The position numbers and the translations under genes were made by a program. The notes under the pieces were generated by a model. That model ran no database searches, had not been told where the DNA came from, and worked only from the letters and a program-made list of their open reading frames with translations. From an uncultured Candidatus Bathyarchaeia archaeon (GTDB lineage: Archaea > Thermoproteota > Bathyarchaeia > Bathyarchaeales > Bathycorpusculaceae), in contig CAZJBY010000005.1 of NCBI GenBank assembly GCA_964544495.1, forward strand, positions 11,081-75,080: a stretch of DNA of 64,000 bases. Reading direction: 5' to 3'. Position 1 is the first letter of the stretch, and the number at the start of each line of letters is the position of its first letter. Below are positions 5,001-61,381 of this stretch, one piece after another.

Positions 5001-5032
5001 TTTATATAAGGGGGGTATAGACTGTTCCGAGC
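5001..5032 (-). repeat. G6-TATAGAC intergenic cassette, copy 1 (subtype B)
   Basis: The + strand reads TTTATATAAGGGGGGTATAGACTGTTCCGAGC. Read on the - strand it starts 15 nt after the stop of the radical SAM gene. Confidence 0.8.
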
Positions 5033-5046
5033 ATACCAGTTCAGCG

Positions 5047-7588: not shown

Positions 7589-7626
7589 GGGGGGGTATAG
7601 GTAAAAATTTGCACAACAGATTACGG
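7589..7626 (-). repeat. G6-TATAGAC cassette, degenerate copy (subtype A, no clear TATA)
   Basis: GGGGGGGTATAGGTAAAAATTTGCACAACAGATTACGG. On the - strand it starts 17 nt after the PadR stop and lies 147 nt upstream of tRNA-Lys. Confidence 0.6.
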
Positions 7627-10510: not shown

Positions 10511-10556
10511 CGCTTAGAACTGTTGCGATTTTTTGTCTATACCCCCCTTATTTAAA
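10511..10556 (+). repeat. G6-TATAGAC cassette, copy 2 (subtype A with T6 run)
   Basis: CGCTTAGAACTGTTGCGATTTTTTGTCTATACCCCCCTTATTTAAA, starting 16 nt after the GT2 stop. Confidence 0.8.
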
Positions 10557-10650
10557 GGCGGAAGCACAGGTTGAATTTCTGCGCCGATACGGACCTATCC
10601 CTTATAGGTTTCTGCAACGAATCTCTATTAGACGGCAAATATGTTGGTCT
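10557..10650 (+). ncRNA. conserved non-coding module, short copy (candidate sRNA or leader)
   Basis: GATACGGACCTATCCCTTATAGGTTTCTGCA...CTATTAGACGGCAAATATGTTGGT aligns with the modules at 34.2 kb, 60.6 kb and 57.9 kb. It lies between convergent genes. Confidence 0.3.
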
Positions 10651-12181: not shown

Positions 12182-12245
12182 GTGACATTGCCCCTGCACT
12201 GGTTCTCCATTCAGAATTAAAGTGGGGGTTGTGTTTAAGGGGTTC

Positions 12246-12286
12246 TGTCAAGGTTTCTTGACCTGGCTTAGTCAACATTTCTTGAC
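12246..12286 (-). promoter_or_regulatory. dual-palindrome operator, copy 1
   Basis: TGTCAAGGTTTCTTGACCTGGCTTAGTCAACATTTCTTGAC, 64 nt upstream of ATG 12181. Confidence 0.7.
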
Positions 12287-12420
12287 CCATGGCTACTATT
12301 TGCTTTTATGGAAGCTTAAACTCTGTTTAGCTTCAGCTTTTTGGAAGCCAAGCTTGTTTTTCCTGCTATTCTGCGAAAACATGATAAGTCTGATGTTGGC
12401 AACATTGTGACCGATGCAAG

Positions 12421-34081: not shown

Positions 34082-34148
34082 CAATCGTAATGCCCCTTTG
34101 TTTATTCTCCGTGGTAATTCTAGGTTTTCTGTGTGTTATAGCCTTTTT

Positions 34149-34189
34149 TGTCAAGGTTTCTTGACCCAGCTTAGTCAACATTTCTTGAC
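34149..34189 (-). promoter_or_regulatory. dual-palindrome operator, copy 2
   Basis: TGTCAAGGTTTCTTGACCCAGCTTAGTCAACATTTCTTGAC, 67 nt upstream of ATG 34081. CTATAACACACAG lies between the two. Confidence 0.7.
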
Positions 34190-34195
34190 TAAACC

Positions 34196-34333
34196 AAAAA
34201 CCATCATATCTGCCGTCTACTAAGAGCCTATTAGCCAATTAATGCAGAAACTATAGAGGGGTAGGTCCCTATTGGCGTGGAAACAGCCCAATACATGCAA
34301 AAAACAGTGCTTCGCAGAAACCATGCAGTTTAG
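34196..34333 (-). ncRNA. conserved non-coding module (candidate sRNA or leader), full copy
   Basis: Bracketed by a TATA box (34334-34342) and a T5 run (34196-34200, - strand). About 75% identical by eye to 60619-60744. Confidence 0.35.
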
Positions 34334-34378
34334 TTTATATAAGGGGGGTATAGACAAAAAAACGCAACAGTTCTAGCG
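34334..34378 (-). repeat. G6-TATAGAC cassette, copy 4 (subtype A with T7 run)
   Basis: The + strand reads TTTATATAAGGGGGGTATAGACAAAAAAACGCAACAGTTCTAGCG, in the divergent region between the surface operon and hsp20-rpl15-secY. Confidence 0.8.
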
Positions 34379-34466
34379 CAATCAAACCAACAGAAAAAAT
34401 CTTGGCGGCTTTGCGATACATTTTAAAGTTACGTTGGAAATGCCATTGTATCTAGGAGACGCAAAG

Positions 34467-35342: not shown

Positions 35343-36758
35343 ATGGCTGGAAGATTCCTAAGCCTCTTCAAACCGCTCGGAAGAGTACTGCCTGAAATCA
35401 AAGTCCCCGAACGCAAAGTCGGCTTCAACGAAAAAATCTTCTGGACCGCCATAGTCCTCATCGTCTACCTCGTCATGTCCGAAATCACACTCTACGGAAT
35501 CTCCAGCACAGTAACAGACCGATTCAGCCAACTAAGAGTAATCTTCGCCTCAAACCGCGGCACCCTCATGGAACTCGGCATAGGCCCCATAGTCACCGCA
35601 GGCTTAATCCTGCAACTGCTATCCGGCTCCGCCATCATACAATGCGACATGTCCGATCCTCAAGACAGAGGCTTGTTCACCGTCGCAAGCAAATTCTTCT
35701 CTATACTTCTCACGGGAATCCAAGCGTCAGCTTACATAATAAGCGGCATGTACGGCAGCCTAGCAGGACCCACGACAATAGTCATCTTCATACAGCTTTT
35801 AGGCGCTGGAATAATCGTGATGCTCATGGATGAGCTTGTGCAGAAAGGCTGGGGACTAGGCAGCGGAATCAGCCTCTTTATCATGGCTGGGGTTGCGCAG
35901 AACATTCTCTGGCAAGCGTTTAATCCTGGCACTGGCTTGTTTGTGGGTTCGCTTTCTACGCTTTTGCGGGGTCAACAATCGTATGGATTAACGGAGTGGA
36001 TACTTGGCGCAGGGTCTTATCCGTCTTTGCTTGGGTTCATAGCGACGATCGGCACGTTCCTGATAATTATTTACTTGGAAGGTGTCAGGGTTGAGTTGCC
36101 GATGACCTACGCTGGGTACAAGGGGTTCCGCAGTCGCTATCCAATCAAGCTCTTGTACGTGTCAAACCTTCCAGTTATTTTCGCGTCTGCGCTTTTCGCT
36201 AATGTTTACTTCTTTTCTCAGCTTCTGTGGAGCCAGATGGGTGCACCTGCTCCTGGGACGAACATTTTCTTCCAGTTTTTAGGCGATTATAGTCAAAACG
36301 CTACGACAGGGACTGTGACGCCTGTTGGCGGTTTAGCTTATTATGTAACTCCACCTCAAAATATTATCAGCGTAGCGGCTGAGCCTATACGGGCTTCGGT
36401 TTATTTGGTTATTCTTGTGGCTTTCTGCGCGGTGTTTTCGCTTATTTGGCTTGAGGTTGGCGGTCTTGGACCTGATAAAGTTGCTAAACAGCTTATGGAT
36501 TCAGGTATGCAGATTCCTGGTCACAGGCGTTCTGGAAGGCCTATTCAGGCGATTCTTAAACGGTATATTCCTGTGGTTACGGTTCTCGGCGGATTAATCG
36601 TAGGTTTGATTGCTGGACTTGCGGATTTCCTAGGGGTTTTCGGTACAGGAACAGGAATCCTGCTTTCGGTGGGCATAATTTACCAGTACTACGAGTTGCT
36701 GATGCGTGAAAGAGCAGCGGAGATGTTCCCAGCTTTCAGAAGAATCCTAGGCGAATAG
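35343..36758 (+). CDS. secY: preprotein translocase subunit SecY
   Basis: 471 aa with 10 TM helices. IFASNRGTLMELGIGPIVTAGLILQLL. Follows L15. Confidence 0.93.
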   Translation: MAGRFLSLFKPLGRVLPEIKVPERKVGFNEKIFWTAIVLIVYLVMSEITLYGISSTVTDRFSQLRVIFASNRGTLMELGIGPIVTAGLILQLLSGSAIIQCDMSDPQDRGLFTVASKFFSILLTGIQASAYIISGMYGSLAGPTTIVIFIQLLGAGIIVMLMDELVQKGWGLGSGISLFIMAGVAQNILWQAFNPGTGLFVGSLSTLLRGQQSYGLTEWILGAGSYPSLLGFIATIGTFLIIIYLEGVRVELPMTYAGYKGFRSRYPIKLLYVSNLPVIFASALFANVYFFSQLLWSQMGAPAPGTNIFFQFLGDYSQNATTGTVTPVGGLAYYVTPPQNIISVAAEPIRASVYLVILVAFCAVFSLIWLEVGGLGPDKVAKQLMDSGMQIPGHRRSGRPIQAILKRYIPVVTVLGGLIVGLIAGLADFLGVFGTGTGILLSVGIIYQYYELLMRERAAEMFPAFRRILGE

Positions 36759-36773
36759 CCGTAAGACTATAGC

Positions 36774-36806
36774 GCTCGGAACAGTCTATACCCCCCTTAT
36801 TTATAG
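36774..36806 (+). repeat. G6-TATAGAC cassette, copy 5 (subtype B)
   Basis: GCTCGGAACAGTCTATACCCCCCTTATTTATAG starts 16 nt after the secY stop. A partial inverted copy GGGGTATAGAA lies at 36824-36834. Confidence 0.8.
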
Positions 36807-36896
36807 AGTTAACTTGGTTTTGCGGGGTATAGAATAGTTGCCTGGAAATATTAGCAAAGCTTTTGAGCCTAACTGCCTGTACTAGCACGGTTACTA

Positions 36897-37247
36897 ATGA
36901 AATACTATCATGTATTCATTCAAAGCTTGGAAAAACAGGGTCTCTGGAGGCAAGGCATCAGTTTTGACCATTCCAAAGAAAACATGATGGCAAGTATTAT
37001 CTCACCTTTTAATGAACAGAAACCCTTCCGTTTCGGTGAAAGACTGGTGGATTTAAAGAAAATTGACTGCGTCATCGTCTTTGAATCTGACAAGCCAATC
37101 AGTGAGATAGTTCTCCCCAATGGAGAGGACCCTCATGAGGCAGATATGGCTTTTCTTATTCACAGTTTCTGTGACGGCACGGTTAGGGGTATCCGTGACT
37201 GCACATCTGAATTCGTTTTGCCAACCACGCATGCTGGAAAATCATAG
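36897..37247 (+). CDS. hypothetical protein
   Basis: 116-aa ORF with no recognised motif. Confidence 0.4.
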   Translation: MKYYHVFIQSLEKQGLWRQGISFDHSKENMMASIISPFNEQKPFRFGERLVDLKKIDCVIVFESDKPISEIVLPNGEDPHEADMAFLIHSFCDGTVRGIRDCTSEFVLPTTHAGKS

Positions 37248-37273
37248 GTAGCTAGATGAAATCCTCGGGTAGT

Positions 37274-37660
37274 TTACCAAGGAGGAGTTCCCGTTTGGAT
37301 CAGGCGTCGATTGTATTCATTGCAGAGGTTGTATGCGTCAAATATGTTCCAAATCCAGAAAGCTACCGGCAGAAACAGCGGCAGTATTAGCCAGAAGAAG
37401 AACAAGGCGATTATCGCTGTCAAGGGAATTCCTATGAAAAGAAACAGCAAACCTCTGCCTATTTGTCCAGCGTACATCTGACCTAAGCCTGGAAGTATAA
37501 GTGAAAGAATCGCGGCTAAACCTGAACTCTTAGTTCCCACGGTCACCCTTGAAACAGGCACTTCCCTTTGCGTCGGCATGACCTTCAATGGATTACCGCA
37601 ATAAGGGCACACATTCATCTCTTCAGTTACTTCTTTCCCACATTTAGGACAAAAAGGCAC
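37274..37660 (-). CDS. zinc-ribbon plus TM2-domain membrane protein
   Basis: MPFCPKCGKEV...CPYCGNPL followed by GLAAILSLILPGLGQMYAGQ (TM2-like). Confidence 0.65.
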   Translation of the reverse strand: MPFCPKCGKEVTEEMNVCPYCGNPLKVMPTQREVPVSRVTVGTKSSGLAAILSLILPGLGQMYAGQIGRGLLFLFIGIPLTAIIALFFFWLILPLFLPVAFWIWNIFDAYNLCNEYNRRLIQTGTPPW

Positions 37661-37860
37661 CTTTCCTCTCTCCTCAAAGCCTCATATTGCGGCTATGCAA
37701 ATAAAAAATTTGTGAAATTATTGAGAATTTTGGAAACTTTTACGGTTTGAGTAGCAATTTAAAACAGCAACATACTTTGCAAGAAGGAATGAACTCAAGA
37801 AACAAGGCAAGGTCATAAATAGAAGCTGAAAATCTAAATGGTGAAAGGTGCCGCACTCAG

Positions 37861-38304
37861 ATGACTGTACTGTCAGATAATGAAATTCTTTCTTTAATTA
37901 ATGAAAGAAGTATAATCATAGAGCCATTCTTGAAAGATAGACTGACATCCGCGGGATACGATTTCTCGTCTGGAACCACTTTTGACCTGCAGCCAAAGCA
38001 GCAGAAGCTGGTAGCCACAGCGGAACGTATTGGGCTGCCCGCTGACATTTTGGGGACGATCCATCTGAGGTCCTCTCTGTGCAGAGAAGGGCTTATTGGA
38101 AGTTTCGCGGTAATCGACCCAGGATTTAAGGGAAAGTTAACTTTGTCCTTATTTAACTCAGGTGAGTCACCTGTTCATATAGAAAAAAATGAGCCTTTTG
38201 CTCAAGTGTTATTCCATAAAACAGGAAAACCGTCCAGCAGCCCTTACCACGGCAGATATCAGGATAGCTTAGGATTAGTGAAGAGCAGAAGGAAACCTAA
38301 ATAG
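37861..38304 (+). CDS. dCTP deaminase/dUTPase-family protein
   Basis: LSDNEI...GYDFS...IHLRSSLCREGL...VIDPGFKGKLTLSLFN is the trimeric dUTPase-fold signature. Confidence 0.7.
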   Translation: MTVLSDNEILSLINERSIIIEPFLKDRLTSAGYDFSSGTTFDLQPKQQKLVATAERIGLPADILGTIHLRSSLCREGLIGSFAVIDPGFKGKLTLSLFNSGESPVHIEKNEPFAQVLFHKTGKPSSSPYHGRYQDSLGLVKSRRKPK

Positions 38305-38316
38305 CTCGTTGCTGCT

Positions 38317-38574
38317 TTACCAACGTCTTCTTCTTTCACTAGTCTTCTCTTTCAATTCCTTCAACCGTTCTTCCGAGAGATAGTATTTGCCATCAACTTC
38401 CACAAAAACACCCAACTGCCCCAAACGTCTCTTCATCCTCCCCTTGAATTCGGCTGGAAGACCAAGCTCCTCTGCGGTCAGAGGAGCTTGGTCTGGGCTT
38501 AAAGCGCCCTTCTTTCGGAACTTCTCTATGGTCTCTATCAGATGCTCCCTTATCTCGGCGCGCCTTCTAAACAT
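38317..38574 (-). CDS. hypothetical small basic protein
   Basis: 85-aa ORF with charged helical composition. Confidence 0.4.
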   Translation of the reverse strand: MFRRRAEIREHLIETIEKFRKKGALSPDQAPLTAEELGLPAEFKGRMKRRLGQLGVFVEVDGKYYLSEERLKELKEKTSERRRRW

Positions 38575-38649
38575 GCAACTTCACCAGCTAAGGCTTAACT
38601 GATCGGTTCACTATAACATTTTCCAACTCATAAACTCCTCAGGGCTGCA

Positions 38650-39243
38650 TTGTATAATGGGATGAGAATATATTGTTGCGAACTCTTAACTCCACTTATG
38701 CTGATTCGCCAATTGGCTAGCGTCGTAACTCTTCCGGTCGCAGTGCTCGTCATTCTGCCCGCTGCGCTGGTCTGTTTATTCTCGTATGTTCCTTTTTGGG
38801 GCATCCCATATCTTGCCGCAATGTTCCTTCTTGTTGCGGGTTTAGTTTTGACTGGTTTAGGCTTTATCCTGCTTTATTCAACAATTTCGCTTTTCATCAA
38901 AAAAGGAAACGGCACAATCGCTCCTTGGGATCCCCCGAAAAGGCTCATAGTAACTGGGGTTTATGCTCATGTTCGTAATCCAATGCATGTTGGAGTGTTC
39001 TTTATTTTGGCTGGAGAAAGTATTCTCATTGGCTCTGTTGCGGTAGCGCTTTGGACGTTGCTGTTTATTTTAGGTAACTTGTTCTACGTTCCAATGGTGG
39101 AGGAGCAGAAGCTGGCGAAAAGGTTTCGCGATGAGTATCTGATTTACAAACAAAACGTTCCCAGATGGATTCCACGCTTATCTTCTTGGAAACCAAGAGC
39201 AGAACCGCTTGATGCACATGTAGTCTCCGTACATAATTCTTAA
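38650..39243 (+). CDS. isoprenylcysteine carboxyl / phospholipid methyltransferase-family membrane protein
   Basis: LIVTGVYAHVRNPMHVG...EEQKLAKRFRDEYLIYKQNVPRWIPR. Confidence 0.7.
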   Translation: MYNGMRIYCCELLTPLMLIRQLASVVTLPVAVLVILPAALVCLFSYVPFWGIPYLAAMFLLVAGLVLTGLGFILLYSTISLFIKKGNGTIAPWDPPKRLIVTGVYAHVRNPMHVGVFFILAGESILIGSVAVALWTLLFILGNLFYVPMVEEQKLAKRFRDEYLIYKQNVPRWIPRLSSWKPRAEPLDAHVVSVHNS

Positions 39244-39853
39244 ATATTTTCGTAGGCTATTTACTAGTGAGGGAAAGAGTCAAGTCTATCCCGAAAATTT
39301 CAAAGCTTCAGCGATACAGAAATTACTTGAACACGAAGCTGAGTGACAAGGGTTCAAATTTACGCAAATAGCAATGAGTGCGTTGCTATCAATCACGTTA
39401 TTTCCCGCATGAACACATGCAACTTCGAAATACTCTTTCCCTCTCCCGTTTTTTCTTCAAAATTCGTTTTTCAAAATGGGTGCTTTCACTTTTCCTTTAT
39501 CCATCGTGCAATAATAATTAAATATTGCAATTTTGGCTTAGTAAAACGCCAAAAATTAAGTTTATCTGTTAATTTTTTCTAGGGAAACAACTTTGTTACT
39601 TCGAAGTTCGAAGCTTGCGCGACAAGAACTGCTATAACCTTAATCGTCTATGGATTTATCATGCGAAAACAATCTCCGCTTATGGACATAGAGCAAAACC
39701 AGAAGTCTGATGATGCTTTATTGAAGCAGTTGGCCAAGGTTATCGAAGTTTTGCCGGATTTAGAGGATTAACTCTCAACCTATCAACCTGTTTTTGGATA
39801 GCTTACCCGTTTCAAAGAGCAAAAATGGTTATTAACGAGAAAACAAATAGGCA

Positions 39854-45027: not shown

Positions 45028-45069
45028 TTTTAACGCTGTTTTTATCGCTCAATCCTGCTGGAACTGTTA

Positions 45070-45110
45070 GTCAAGAAACCTTGACTAAGCCAGGTCAAGA
45101 AACCTTGACA
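45070..45110 (+). promoter_or_regulatory. dual-palindrome operator, copy 3
   Basis: GTCAAGAAACCTTGACTAAGCCAGGTCAAGAAACCTTGACA, the reverse complement of the other copies, 65 nt upstream of ATG 45176. Confidence 0.7.
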
Positions 45111-45234
45111 AAAACTCTTAAATCGAACGCGAGTCTTTAATTTTATAAGAGGAATGAGCACAGAGGCAACATAAGATGTTCCTCTCCCAAAAGCCAGACA
45201 ACACAAAAAAACCTTCACAGCAACACTAGTCACA

Positions 45235-60474: not shown

Positions 60475-60540
60475 CTTCCTTAATGCTCCTGCGCTTATGC
60501 GCATTTTAAACTAAGTTTTTCTGTGTGTTATAGGCTTTTT

Positions 60541-60581
60541 TGTCAAGGTTTCTTGACCTGGCTTAGTCAAGGTTTCTTGAC
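60541..60581 (-). promoter_or_regulatory. dual-palindrome operator, copy 4
   Basis: TGTCAAGGTTTCTTGACCTGGCTTAGTCAAGGTTTCTTGAC. CCTATAACACACAG lies between it and the gene. Confidence 0.7.
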
Positions 60582-60618
60582 TAACTTTTTCTGAACATGG
60601 AACAAGGCGTGAACACAT

Positions 60619-60744
60619 AAAAAACCATCCTGTTTGCCGCATACACTTCCTAATAGCAGTTTATTGCAGAAAATAGAGGGGAGAGGTCCCGTATTGGCTG
60701 TTTCCGCAACCAATAGCAGTGCTTCGCCGAAACCATGCAGTTCA
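60619..60744 (-). ncRNA. conserved non-coding module (candidate sRNA or leader), full copy
   Basis: Bracketed by the TATA-like GTATATATA (60745-60753) and a T6 run (60619-60624, - strand). Homologous to 34196-34333. Confidence 0.35.
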
Positions 60745-60777
60745 GTATATATACGGGGGGTATAGACTGCACCGAGC
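60745..60777 (-). repeat. G6-TATAGAC cassette, copy 6 (subtype B)
   Basis: The + strand reads GTATATATACGGGGGGTATAGACTGCACCGAGC. Confidence 0.75.
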
Positions 60778-60835
60778 AACAGAGAACACGAATACTTTTC
60801 TAAAACCTCCACCCTACTAGTTTCAGGCGAAAACT

Positions 60836-61381
60836 GTGACGCTGGATCACTACACTTACCCGAAAGAAATTGTGATAGACGAAGCTGGATGGAGCGAACT
60901 GCTGCTAGGCGTAGTAATCGGCGCCATCAAACCCCCAGACCCACGATACATGGAACGCAGAATCCCCATATCCTCCTTTCAACCGCCAAACTTCACCAAA
61001 AAAAGATACCTCGACGACGCCGTAAAAATCGCCGAAGAAATCATCGAAGTCATGCAGCCCGACGACGAAACCCACTTCAAAATCTCCTCCGCATACGTCC
61101 TCTCCAGCGTACGCAGATACCTCCAAAACCGAGGATTCAAAGTCGAAAAAGTCGACGCCACAGGCGAACTCCAACAGATGGCGGAAAGAGGCTACACAAG
61201 ATGGTGCACCGAAGTAGGCGTGCCAGCCGAGCTGCTTGAAAACAAAAGACGCTTCTGGGTACTGCTTAATTGGGTCGCTGAAAGACCCCACCTGAGGGAA
61301 AGCCTAGTGAAAACTGGATGGGCAAGCTGGCAGCGAAAATGGCGAGAAGAAATCTACAAACCTCAAAACCTGCAAGGCTAA
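60836..61381 (+). CDS. hypothetical protein
   Basis: 181-aa ORF with coding-like composition, a GTG start and no recognised motif. Confidence 0.5.
   Translation: MTLDHYTYPKEIVIDEAGWSELLLGVVIGAIKPPDPRYMERRIPISSFQPPNFTKKRYLDDAVKIAEEIIEVMQPDDETHFKISSAYVLSSVRRYLQNRGFKVEKVDATGELQQMAERGYTRWCTEVGVPAELLENKRRFWVLLNWVAERPHLRESLVKTGWASWQRKWREEIYKPQNLQG

Follow-up and report, generated by a model that had tools for sequence, protein, structure and literature searches.

A polar intergenic cassette with promoter-like features borders conserved gene blocks in some Bathyarchaeia genomes

The DNA analysed here, a 64-kb stretch referred to below as the window, corresponds to C5:11081-75080 in the MAG to which it belongs (G000; 2.14 Mb in 90 contigs), a member of the Bathyarchaeia, and all relatives of its SecY protein were likewise found in Bathyarchaeia MAGs. 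A short cassette recurs in the window next to genes that were identified with Pfam as encoding radical-SAM, PadR, GT2 and SecY proteins (Table 1). Six copies had been listed in a preliminary description of this DNA. Five of them carry the 13-nt core GTCTATACCCCCC without mismatch and the sixth, copy 2, has a degenerate core (ACCTATACCCCCC), as listed; an extra partial core in inverted orientation (TTCTATACCCCGC) had been overlooked. At up to two mismatches the window holds seven core sites when 0.49 are expected, a number reached by none of 100 shuffled sequences.

The TATA-like tract that was said to follow the core directly is present after the five exact copies (TTATATAAA, TTATTTAAA, TTATTTATA or GTATATATA) and missing from copy 2. 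The two subtypes recognised upstream of the core are real, with GCTCGGAACA or GCTCGGTGCA in copies 1, 5 and 6, and CTGTTGCG followed by T6-7 in copies 3 and 4 and, in a degenerate form, in copy 2; the box of copy 6 reads TGCA instead of AACA. The distances of 14-17 nt that separate the cassette from the stop codons of the radical-SAM, PadR, GT2 and secY genes also agree with the earlier values. When the window was compared with Rfam, tRNA-Lys was the sole match at gathering score and the cassette remained unmatched.

Table 1. Cassette copies in the window, with their parts and surroundings.
Feature	Position	Strand	Upstream box, core and TATA	Modules after the TATA	Surroundings
Copy 1, short form	5001..5046	-	upstream box ..CTGGTATGCTCGGAACA; core GTCTATACCCCCC 5022-5010; TATA TTATATAAA 5009-5001		radical-SAM stop TAA 5047-5049, 14 nt to GCTCGG; orthologous copy in G007
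Copy 2, decayed	7589..7626	-	T-run-type upstream box; core ACCTATACCCCCC 7602-7590; TATA lost (CACACAAAG)		PadR stop TAA 7644-7646, ca. 17 nt to cassette; ca. 150 nt ahead of tRNA-Lys
Copy 3, long form	10511..10642	+	T6 upstream box 10519-10534; core GTCTATACCCCCC 10535-10547; TATA TTATTTAAA 10548-10556	D2, H1 remnant, P2 (ACCTATCCCTTATAGGTTTCTGCA), H2 remnant (CTATTAGACGGCAAATA)	GT2 stop TAA 10493-10495, 15 nt to cassette; convergent gene on other flank
Copy 4, long form	34207..34380	-	T7 upstream box 34371-34356 (TGC 34366-34364); core GTCTATACCCCCC 34355-34343; TATA 34342-34334	D1, H1 (palindrome TATTGG..CCAATA), P2, H2	separates divergent surface-protein cluster (own palindromic operator and promoter, 34144-34192) from hsp20-L15-secY operon; position kept in at least nine relatives, also in G010
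Copy 5, short form	36759..36806	+	upstream box GACTATAGCGCTCGGAACA; core GTCTATACCCCCC 36784-36796; TATA TTATTTATA 36797-36805		begins a few nt past secY stop TAG 36756-36758, 15 nt from stop to cassette
Partial inverted core	36822..36834	-	TTCTATACCCCGC; no TATA of its own		25 nt from copy 5
Copy 6, long form	60631..60790	-	upstream box ..CTGTTGCTCGGTGCA; core GTCTATACCCCCC 60767-60755; TATA GTATATATA 60754-60746	D1, H1 with flipped centre (TTGCGGAAACAG), P2, H2	

The window copies belong to a dispersed intergenic family that extends over the whole genome and of which the 13-mer is the near-invariant centre. G000 contains 50 exact cores and 35 with one mismatch, and a genome-wide profile of cassette positions -22 to +24 gave 108 matches at E<=0.01. 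Ca. 86-88% of the cassettes are intergenic, a figure that, like the orientation statistics given below for G000, is based on our own crude ORF calls. In searches with a 22-mer at no more than two mismatches, 59 copies were counted in G000 and 0 to 26 in ten congeners. Variants such as GACTATAGCCCCC are present in three other genera of the family, and the 22-mer is absent from 16 genomes of other families in the order. One congener estimated to be 98% complete (G001) has neither a cassette copy nor a module match, and the system is therefore dispensable. A further genome, contiguous and assembled from long reads, represents another lineage (G041; SecY 76% identical, 1.69-Mb contig) and has 86 copies, and no copy was found in five other large Bathyarchaeia genomes. 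Along the G041 contig the cassettes display no strand bias at the scale of replichores. A bias of cassettes relative to contig ends is weak (49 outward versus 31 inward). Carriage by viruses was considered and rejected, since the three exact 17-mer matches found in IMG/VR lack both the flanking boxes and a proper TATA and were taken as chance.

All-against-all BLAST comparisons indicate that similarity between copies spans ca. 20 nt before the core to ca. 150 nt after it. The cassette is a mosaic composed of an upstream box, the core, TTATWTAAA, one of several D modules and the optional modules H1 (TATTGG-N12-CCAATA), P2 (ACCCCCTATAGGTTTCTGCA) and H2 (CTATTAGGATCCTAATAG). The upstream box occurs in two versions, CTGTTGCG-T6-7 or CTnnTGCTCGGWRCA, and tandem arrays of the core-TATA-core-TATA type occur. 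In the profile, each position of the TATA box (TTATWTAAA at +13 to +21 after the core, or TTTAWATAA on the opposite strand) carries 0.9-1.3 bits, and the strongest conservation outside core and TATA is found for a TGC at -11 to -9 (1.0-1.5 bits). The centres of the H1 and H2 palindromes were found in both orientations among long-form copies, for instance at 34264-34285 versus 60686-60717 (GCGGTTTCTGCG versus TTGCGGAAACAG, and AGGAGCCT versus AGGCTCCT), which gives the impression that the stretch enclosed by the arms was inverted. RNAalifold predicted no consensus structure for 19 full copies (mean z-score -1.1), which led to the rejection of a structured RNA in the modules; a small ORF was likewise discarded because its 20-codon frame is disrupted by indels among copies. 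The lack of a consensus RNA structure and the palindromes with flipped centres suggest that the modules on the far side of the TATA behave as double-stranded DNA sites, not as RNA.

In the preliminary description, the cassette was taken for a joint that ends one transcription unit, by means of the oligo-T run of one subtype, and starts the next. Mapping across G000 revealed no co-directional bias, which is the outcome that the same description had named as speaking against its own proposal. Among 69 cassettes, 25 lie between convergent genes, 17 between divergent genes, 14 in co-oriented and 13 in anti-oriented tandem contexts. Cassette strand is also unrelated to gene strand at larger distance, with co-oriented coding bases representing 43-55% in every 1-kb bin up to 10 kb on both sides, and adjacent genes are co-oriented in only ca. 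42% or 44% of the cases, depending on the direction considered. The placement of the T-run is not the one expected of a terminator, since the subtype that carries it is found about as often after same-strand genes (17) as facing gene starts (15), the corresponding values for the other subtype being 23 and 15. It is no conserved part of the element either, because this subtype accounts for ca. 45% of the copies in G000 and for only 3 of 40 in G041. The same-strand genes downstream of copies 1, 4, 5 and 6 have their own canonical A-rich BRE and TATA ca. 30 nt before the start codon. Canonical A-rich BRE and TATA elements are also used by the tRNA genes of G000; a 16S gene, sought for comparison with an rRNA promoter, is absent from this MAG. 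In the direction first proposed, the position of the BRE, which is expected to be A-rich, is occupied by a C6 tract. Mixed placement, the absence of strand correlation, the T-run statistics and the separate promoters of downstream genes together refute the terminator-promoter logic, and a reading backed by the 14-17 nt spacing of four window copies after stop codons and by the T6-7 of one subtype is hardly tenable. A promoter-like nature of the cassette is still plausible, and the proposal of a compact, reused and so far undescribed element with a good archaeal TATA was borne out. For annotation, the cassette should not be taken as an ordinary gene promoter or terminator, neither of which accounts for it because it is indifferent to gene strand.

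Archaeal transcription starts at about 23-25 nt from the TATA. When the cassette is read on the opposite strand, as TTTAWATAA-G6-TATAGAC-(8 nt)-GCAACAG, the conserved TGC becomes a GCA that falls 23-25 nt after the TATA in both subtypes as well as in G041, and similarity between copies stops ca. 10 nt beyond this GCA. Because a conserved GCA occurs at the expected start and similarity ends shortly after it, the cassette looks like a complete promoter that fires in the direction opposite to the one first described. A properly placed initiator was found solely in this direction, in which the T-run becomes an A-run at about -8 to -2, just upstream of the predicted start. An A-rich BRE is missing on either side of the TATA, one side being C6 and the other subtype-specific and not A-rich (AGTTTAG or TTCCGCC), where tRNA and ORF promoters have AAAAC or AAACG. 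The TATA being nearly palindromic, direction is indicated only by the spacing and by the conservation boundary.

Read on the opposite strand, copies 1, 2, 3 and 5 are antisense and directed into gene 3' ends; copy 1, for instance, reads TTTATATAA-G6-TATAGAC-TGTTCCGA-GCA on the + strand, with the GCA at 5031-5033, and is aimed at the radical-SAM gene from its 3' end. On the + strand, copies 4 and 6 run in sense direction into the hsp20-L15-secY operon and into the ORF at 60836-61381, respectively, and in this reading they would supply the other half of divergent control regions that also serve surface-protein clusters.

The TATA reads well the other way too, and a promoter in the direction first proposed would produce either a short non-coding transcript over D, H1, P2 and H2 or outward read-through into flexible DNA and surface-protein loci. 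In the D1 subtype a CG/A occurs at the distance expected, the tandem core-TATA-core-TATA arrays resemble tandem promoters, and a very large family of paralogues, whose members have 24-58 BLAST partners each and which was taken as the surface-protein family, provides the first gene on the module side in 14/70 cases and on the other side in 0/72. We nevertheless consider such a promoter unlikely, since it would have C6 at the BRE position, no purine start at the right spacing in the D2 subtype and T4-6 runs within 15-30 nt, with no conserved RNA structure in modules whose flipped-centre palindromes resemble DNA sites, and since it leaves the sharp conservation edge on the other side unexplained.

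The relative orientation of neighbouring cassettes follows a strict rule. Neighbours less than 8 kb apart form 26 bracketing, 10 tandem and no back-to-back pairs in G000, and 16, 5 and none, respectively, in G041; compared with the 1:2:1 proportions of random strands, this corresponds to chi-square p values of ca. 1e-10 and 1e-7 (own arithmetic). In bracketing pairs the upstream-box ends are turned toward the intervening DNA. Pairs in the opposite arrangement, with the module sides inward, are all at least 8.0 kb apart in G000 (16 pairs) and never closer than 9.8 kb in G041. The blocks, which are bracketed irrespective of gene orientation, measure 1.3-7.5 kb and have no protein family in common. 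Inspection of their sequences showed that they hold ordinary conserved genes such as those for aEF-2, AlaRS, SerRS with eS1, RIO kinase, aldolase and Hsp20-L15-SecY. A MITE or composite transposon was rejected on the grounds that the blocks between cassettes share no protein family and that no IS-like repeat occurs.

Conservation was assessed by tblastx against G000 for 2 kb on each side of 40 G041 cassettes, together with 20 control regions located at least 10 kb from any cassette. Coverage was not uniform (Wilcoxon p = 3e-7) and amounted to 0.87 for the bracketed side, 0.49 for the module side and 0.56 for the background. The bracketed side differs from the background (Mann-Whitney p = 7e-6) and the module side does not (p = 0.44), so that the idea of a hypervariable module side was abandoned in favour of an unusually conserved bracketed side. 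These data show that the gene blocks at whose edges the cassettes lie, and into which they are directed, are unusually conserved.

Many positions are old. A G000 cassette is present at the orthologous gene edge and on the same strand for 12 of 37 G041 cassettes, and both genomes have a bracketed block that consists of the single AlaRS gene. At least ten genomes share the cassette downstream of secY as an orthologous copy; its TATA is the best-kept part, even in copies with a decayed core, and every genome has different genes past this cassette. In G001 a 21-nt spacer takes the place of the cassette. In comparison with the congener G007, ca. 9 of 17 cassettes occupy the same site, with subtypes swapped between orthologous copies, and orthologous flanks were found in 17/18 cases on the upstream side versus only 7/18 on the far side. 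Two orthologous sites retain the upstream box only and break at the junction between box and core. Synteny breaks coincide with cassettes, and loci that have no cassette in relatives show wholly different spacers or broken synteny, with no clean empty sites.

In G000, ca. 3 kb (36759-39850) lie between secY and its usual neighbours, an EMC3-like gene and cmk, and encode a 116-aa ORF, a Zn-ribbon protein, a dCTP deaminase/dUTPase, an 85-aa ORF and PEMT. No genes intervene in G041 or in more distant relatives, where the EMC3-like gene directly follows secY. Cassettes were also found within 400 nt of 5-6 of the 32 tRNA genes and no more than ca. 1 kb from three of the eight tyrosine-integrase matches (C31:13121-14023, C24:17346-19029 and C81:3092-3401), two of which lie beside tRNA genes while one is a fragment that directly adjoins a cassette.

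A gene-capture system, in which the cassette is the recombination or landing site and new DNA is joined on the module side, would fit the changing gene content past the secY cassette (with the 3-kb insert of G000), the two sites broken at the box/core junction and the vicinity of some integrase matches and tRNA genes. We regard it as very unlikely, given that the module side is at background variability and that neither an adjacent recombinase nor a repeated cassette-array layout was found, and the few integrase links are explicable by elements that target tRNA genes. An integron-like platform finds no counterpart here, as neither arrays nor hairpins of that kind were detected.

Copy numbers from 0 to 59 among congeners, the modular mosaic in which orthologous sites have exchanged subtypes, the enrichment in convergent intergenic regions and the synteny breaks are what could be expected from a selfish mosaic repeat of the MITE, BIME or BOX kind, spread or homogenised by gene conversion, that serves as a substrate for ectopic recombination and has a chance TATA-like tract and no host function. 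This alternative is improbable in our opinion. No TIRs, target duplications or clean empty sites were seen (in a TSD search that was not exhaustive), no multi-copy element of at least 400 nt qualifies as autonomous partner, and many positions are ancient, which makes a recent cut-and-paste MITE unlikely. Furthermore, a third of the positions are kept across genera, 22-40 nt being nearly unchanged where silent sites should be saturated. A purely selfish repeat also gives no reason for one particular end always to face conserved DNA, and is inadequate on that account.

The reading that we favour, with a probability of roughly 40%, is that of a clade-specific, polar and dispersed cassette, present in ca. 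100 copies per genome in some Bathyarchaeia, that may be built as a promoter, controlled by a factor and aimed into conserved blocks; its function is inferred from sequence. The promoter parts would follow one another as the TATA (TTTAWATAA), G5-6 with (C/G)TATAG(A/T)C, eight variable bases (A6-7TC in the T-run subtype) and the GCA as putative initiator. The invariant G block would be placed where archaeal repressors or operators and the downstream contacts of TFB lie, and modules D, H1, P2 and H2, two of which are palindromic, might serve as upstream protein-binding sites. A dedicated factor bound to the G-CTATAG block would then control TBP/TFB-dependent initiation into the conserved block, and the predicted transcription would run in sense through ca. 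40% of the adjacent genes and enter the other ca. 60% at their 3' end, in antisense. Such an output would point to a regulon-like or boundary system, not to ordinary promoters or terminators of the neighbours. Against this promoter reading, ca. 58% of the copies would transcribe conserved genes in antisense from their 3' ends, which one would hardly expect of a beneficial promoter.

No trans-acting factor was found in the genomes compared, and TFB number does not track the cassette. A dedicated TFB was rejected because three full TFBs are present in both G000 and the cassette-free G001. A 137-aa TFB-like ORF with a single cyclin repeat was likewise rejected as a required factor, being present in only 5 of 11 cassette-bearing relatives. 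The corresponding protein of G000 (C36:18911-19321; locus L210:312-725) is made up of one TFIIB cyclin repeat, including the BRE-reading helix-turn-helix ..TQREIARSLNTNDVTVRVSYREW.., and has orthologues in G002, G007, G008 and G009. G005 has a pseudogene, and neither G001 nor several of the cassette-rich genomes have the gene.

At a larger scale, the cassettes could be orientation-dependent chromosome boundary elements, a proposal that we advance as rather doubtful. Facing pairs would fence housekeeping blocks (aEF-2, AlaRS, SerRS-eS1, Hsp20-L15-SecY and others) and long-range partners would delimit domains of 8-125 kb, either through inward sense and antisense transcription from the factor-controlled promoter or through a polar protein roadblock. 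If true, this would amount to a sequence-defined organiser, CTCF-like or resembling an antisense regulon, that is restricted to one Bathyarchaeia clade and lost in some congeners.

An architectural role might also be independent of transcription, a protein complex, possibly with TBP, acting as an orientation-dependent barrier, for example to SMC or to the diffusion of supercoils, with facing pairs that insulate blocks and long-range partners that delimit the same 8-125 kb domains. Cassettes are indeed oriented with respect to one another and to conserved blocks, independently of genes, there are ca. 100 sites per genome, and pairs with the module sides inward are never closer than 8-10 kb. For Thermococcus kodakarensis, ca. 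90 Smc peaks have been described together with a boundary that consists of two roadblock sites lying close to each other (PMC11840125). Being pure analogy, leaving the promoter-like spacing between TATA and GCA unexplained and having to accommodate a congener (G001) from which the family is missing, this non-transcriptional explanation has a low probability.

The favoured promoter reading can be compared with several known systems. The canonical archaeal core promoter (BRE, TATA, proximal element and initiator) is matched by the TTTAWATA box, by an A/T-rich stretch before the start and by a pyrimidine-purine step 23-25 nt after the TATA. Differences are the lack of an A-rich BRE, the invariant G5-6 and CTATAG between TATA and start, and the location of the copies, most of which have no co-oriented gene downstream. 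REP/BIME of enterobacteria, BOX of pneumococci and Correia elements of Neisseria are based on hairpins or TIRs and linked to mobilisers of the transposase type. With these the cassette shares a copy number of tens to hundreds, a modular mosaic structure, an intergenic location and a role as substrate of rearrangements, and some of them carry promoter activity; it differs in that no TIR, TSD, stable hairpin or mobiliser was found and in an orientation rule that has no counterpart there.

CTCF sites of animals also obey an orientation rule between neighbouring sites. In T. kodakarensis, paired TrmBL2 sites at the dif boundary are described as roadblocks for SMC complexes (PMC11840125). Tens of sites per genome and close pairs as boundary are features that such roadblock sites have in common with the cassette. 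The likeness to CTCF and TrmBL2 is one of layout only, with no sequence similarity, and the pair rule of a cassette known here from its sequence recalls them only by analogy.

In the literature, no described repeat family with such a sequence or layout was found, the sole analogue being the intergenic repeats of halovirus HF2 (class I of 58 bp and class II of 29 bp), which carry promoters and drive adjacent genes according to a reporter assay (Russ, Pfeiffer and Dyall-Smith 2021, PMC8707807). Both are short, dispersed and sequence-conserved intergenic repeats of an archaeal replicon, with AT-rich promoter motifs and positions conserved among relatives. HF2 repeats are however viral, few in number and of demonstrated promoter activity, whereas the cassette is chromosomal, occurs in ca. 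100 copies unrelated to gene direction and forms facing pairs on either side of conserved blocks. The layout of the cassette matches no repeat family known or found described.

Bathyarchaeia are abundant uncultured archaea of sediment and soil, and to our knowledge nothing is known about their transcription control and chromosome organisation. A consensus of ca. 45 nt that occurs ca. 100 times per genome, with many positions kept across genera and a strict pairing rule that ignores gene direction, provides a testable handle. It predicts a dedicated DNA-binding factor, ca. 100 start sites or roadblocks, and either programmed antisense transcription of housekeeping genes or a code for domain boundaries. 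The cassette also accounts for many synteny breaks and probably for some assembly breaks in Bathyarchaeia MAGs.

Finally, two further features of the window deserve mention. A double palindrome (TTAGTCAAGAAATGTTGACTAA and GGTCAAGAAACCTTGAC) is located directly ahead of the canonical BRE and TATA of every surface-protein cluster (34144-34192, 60536-60584, 12241-12289 and 45067-45115), and is independent of the G6 cassette because two of these four loci have no such cassette. The two long intervals between cassettes, 10535-34355 (23,808 bp) and 36784-60767 (23,971 bp), are nearly equal in length, which is probably a coincidence.
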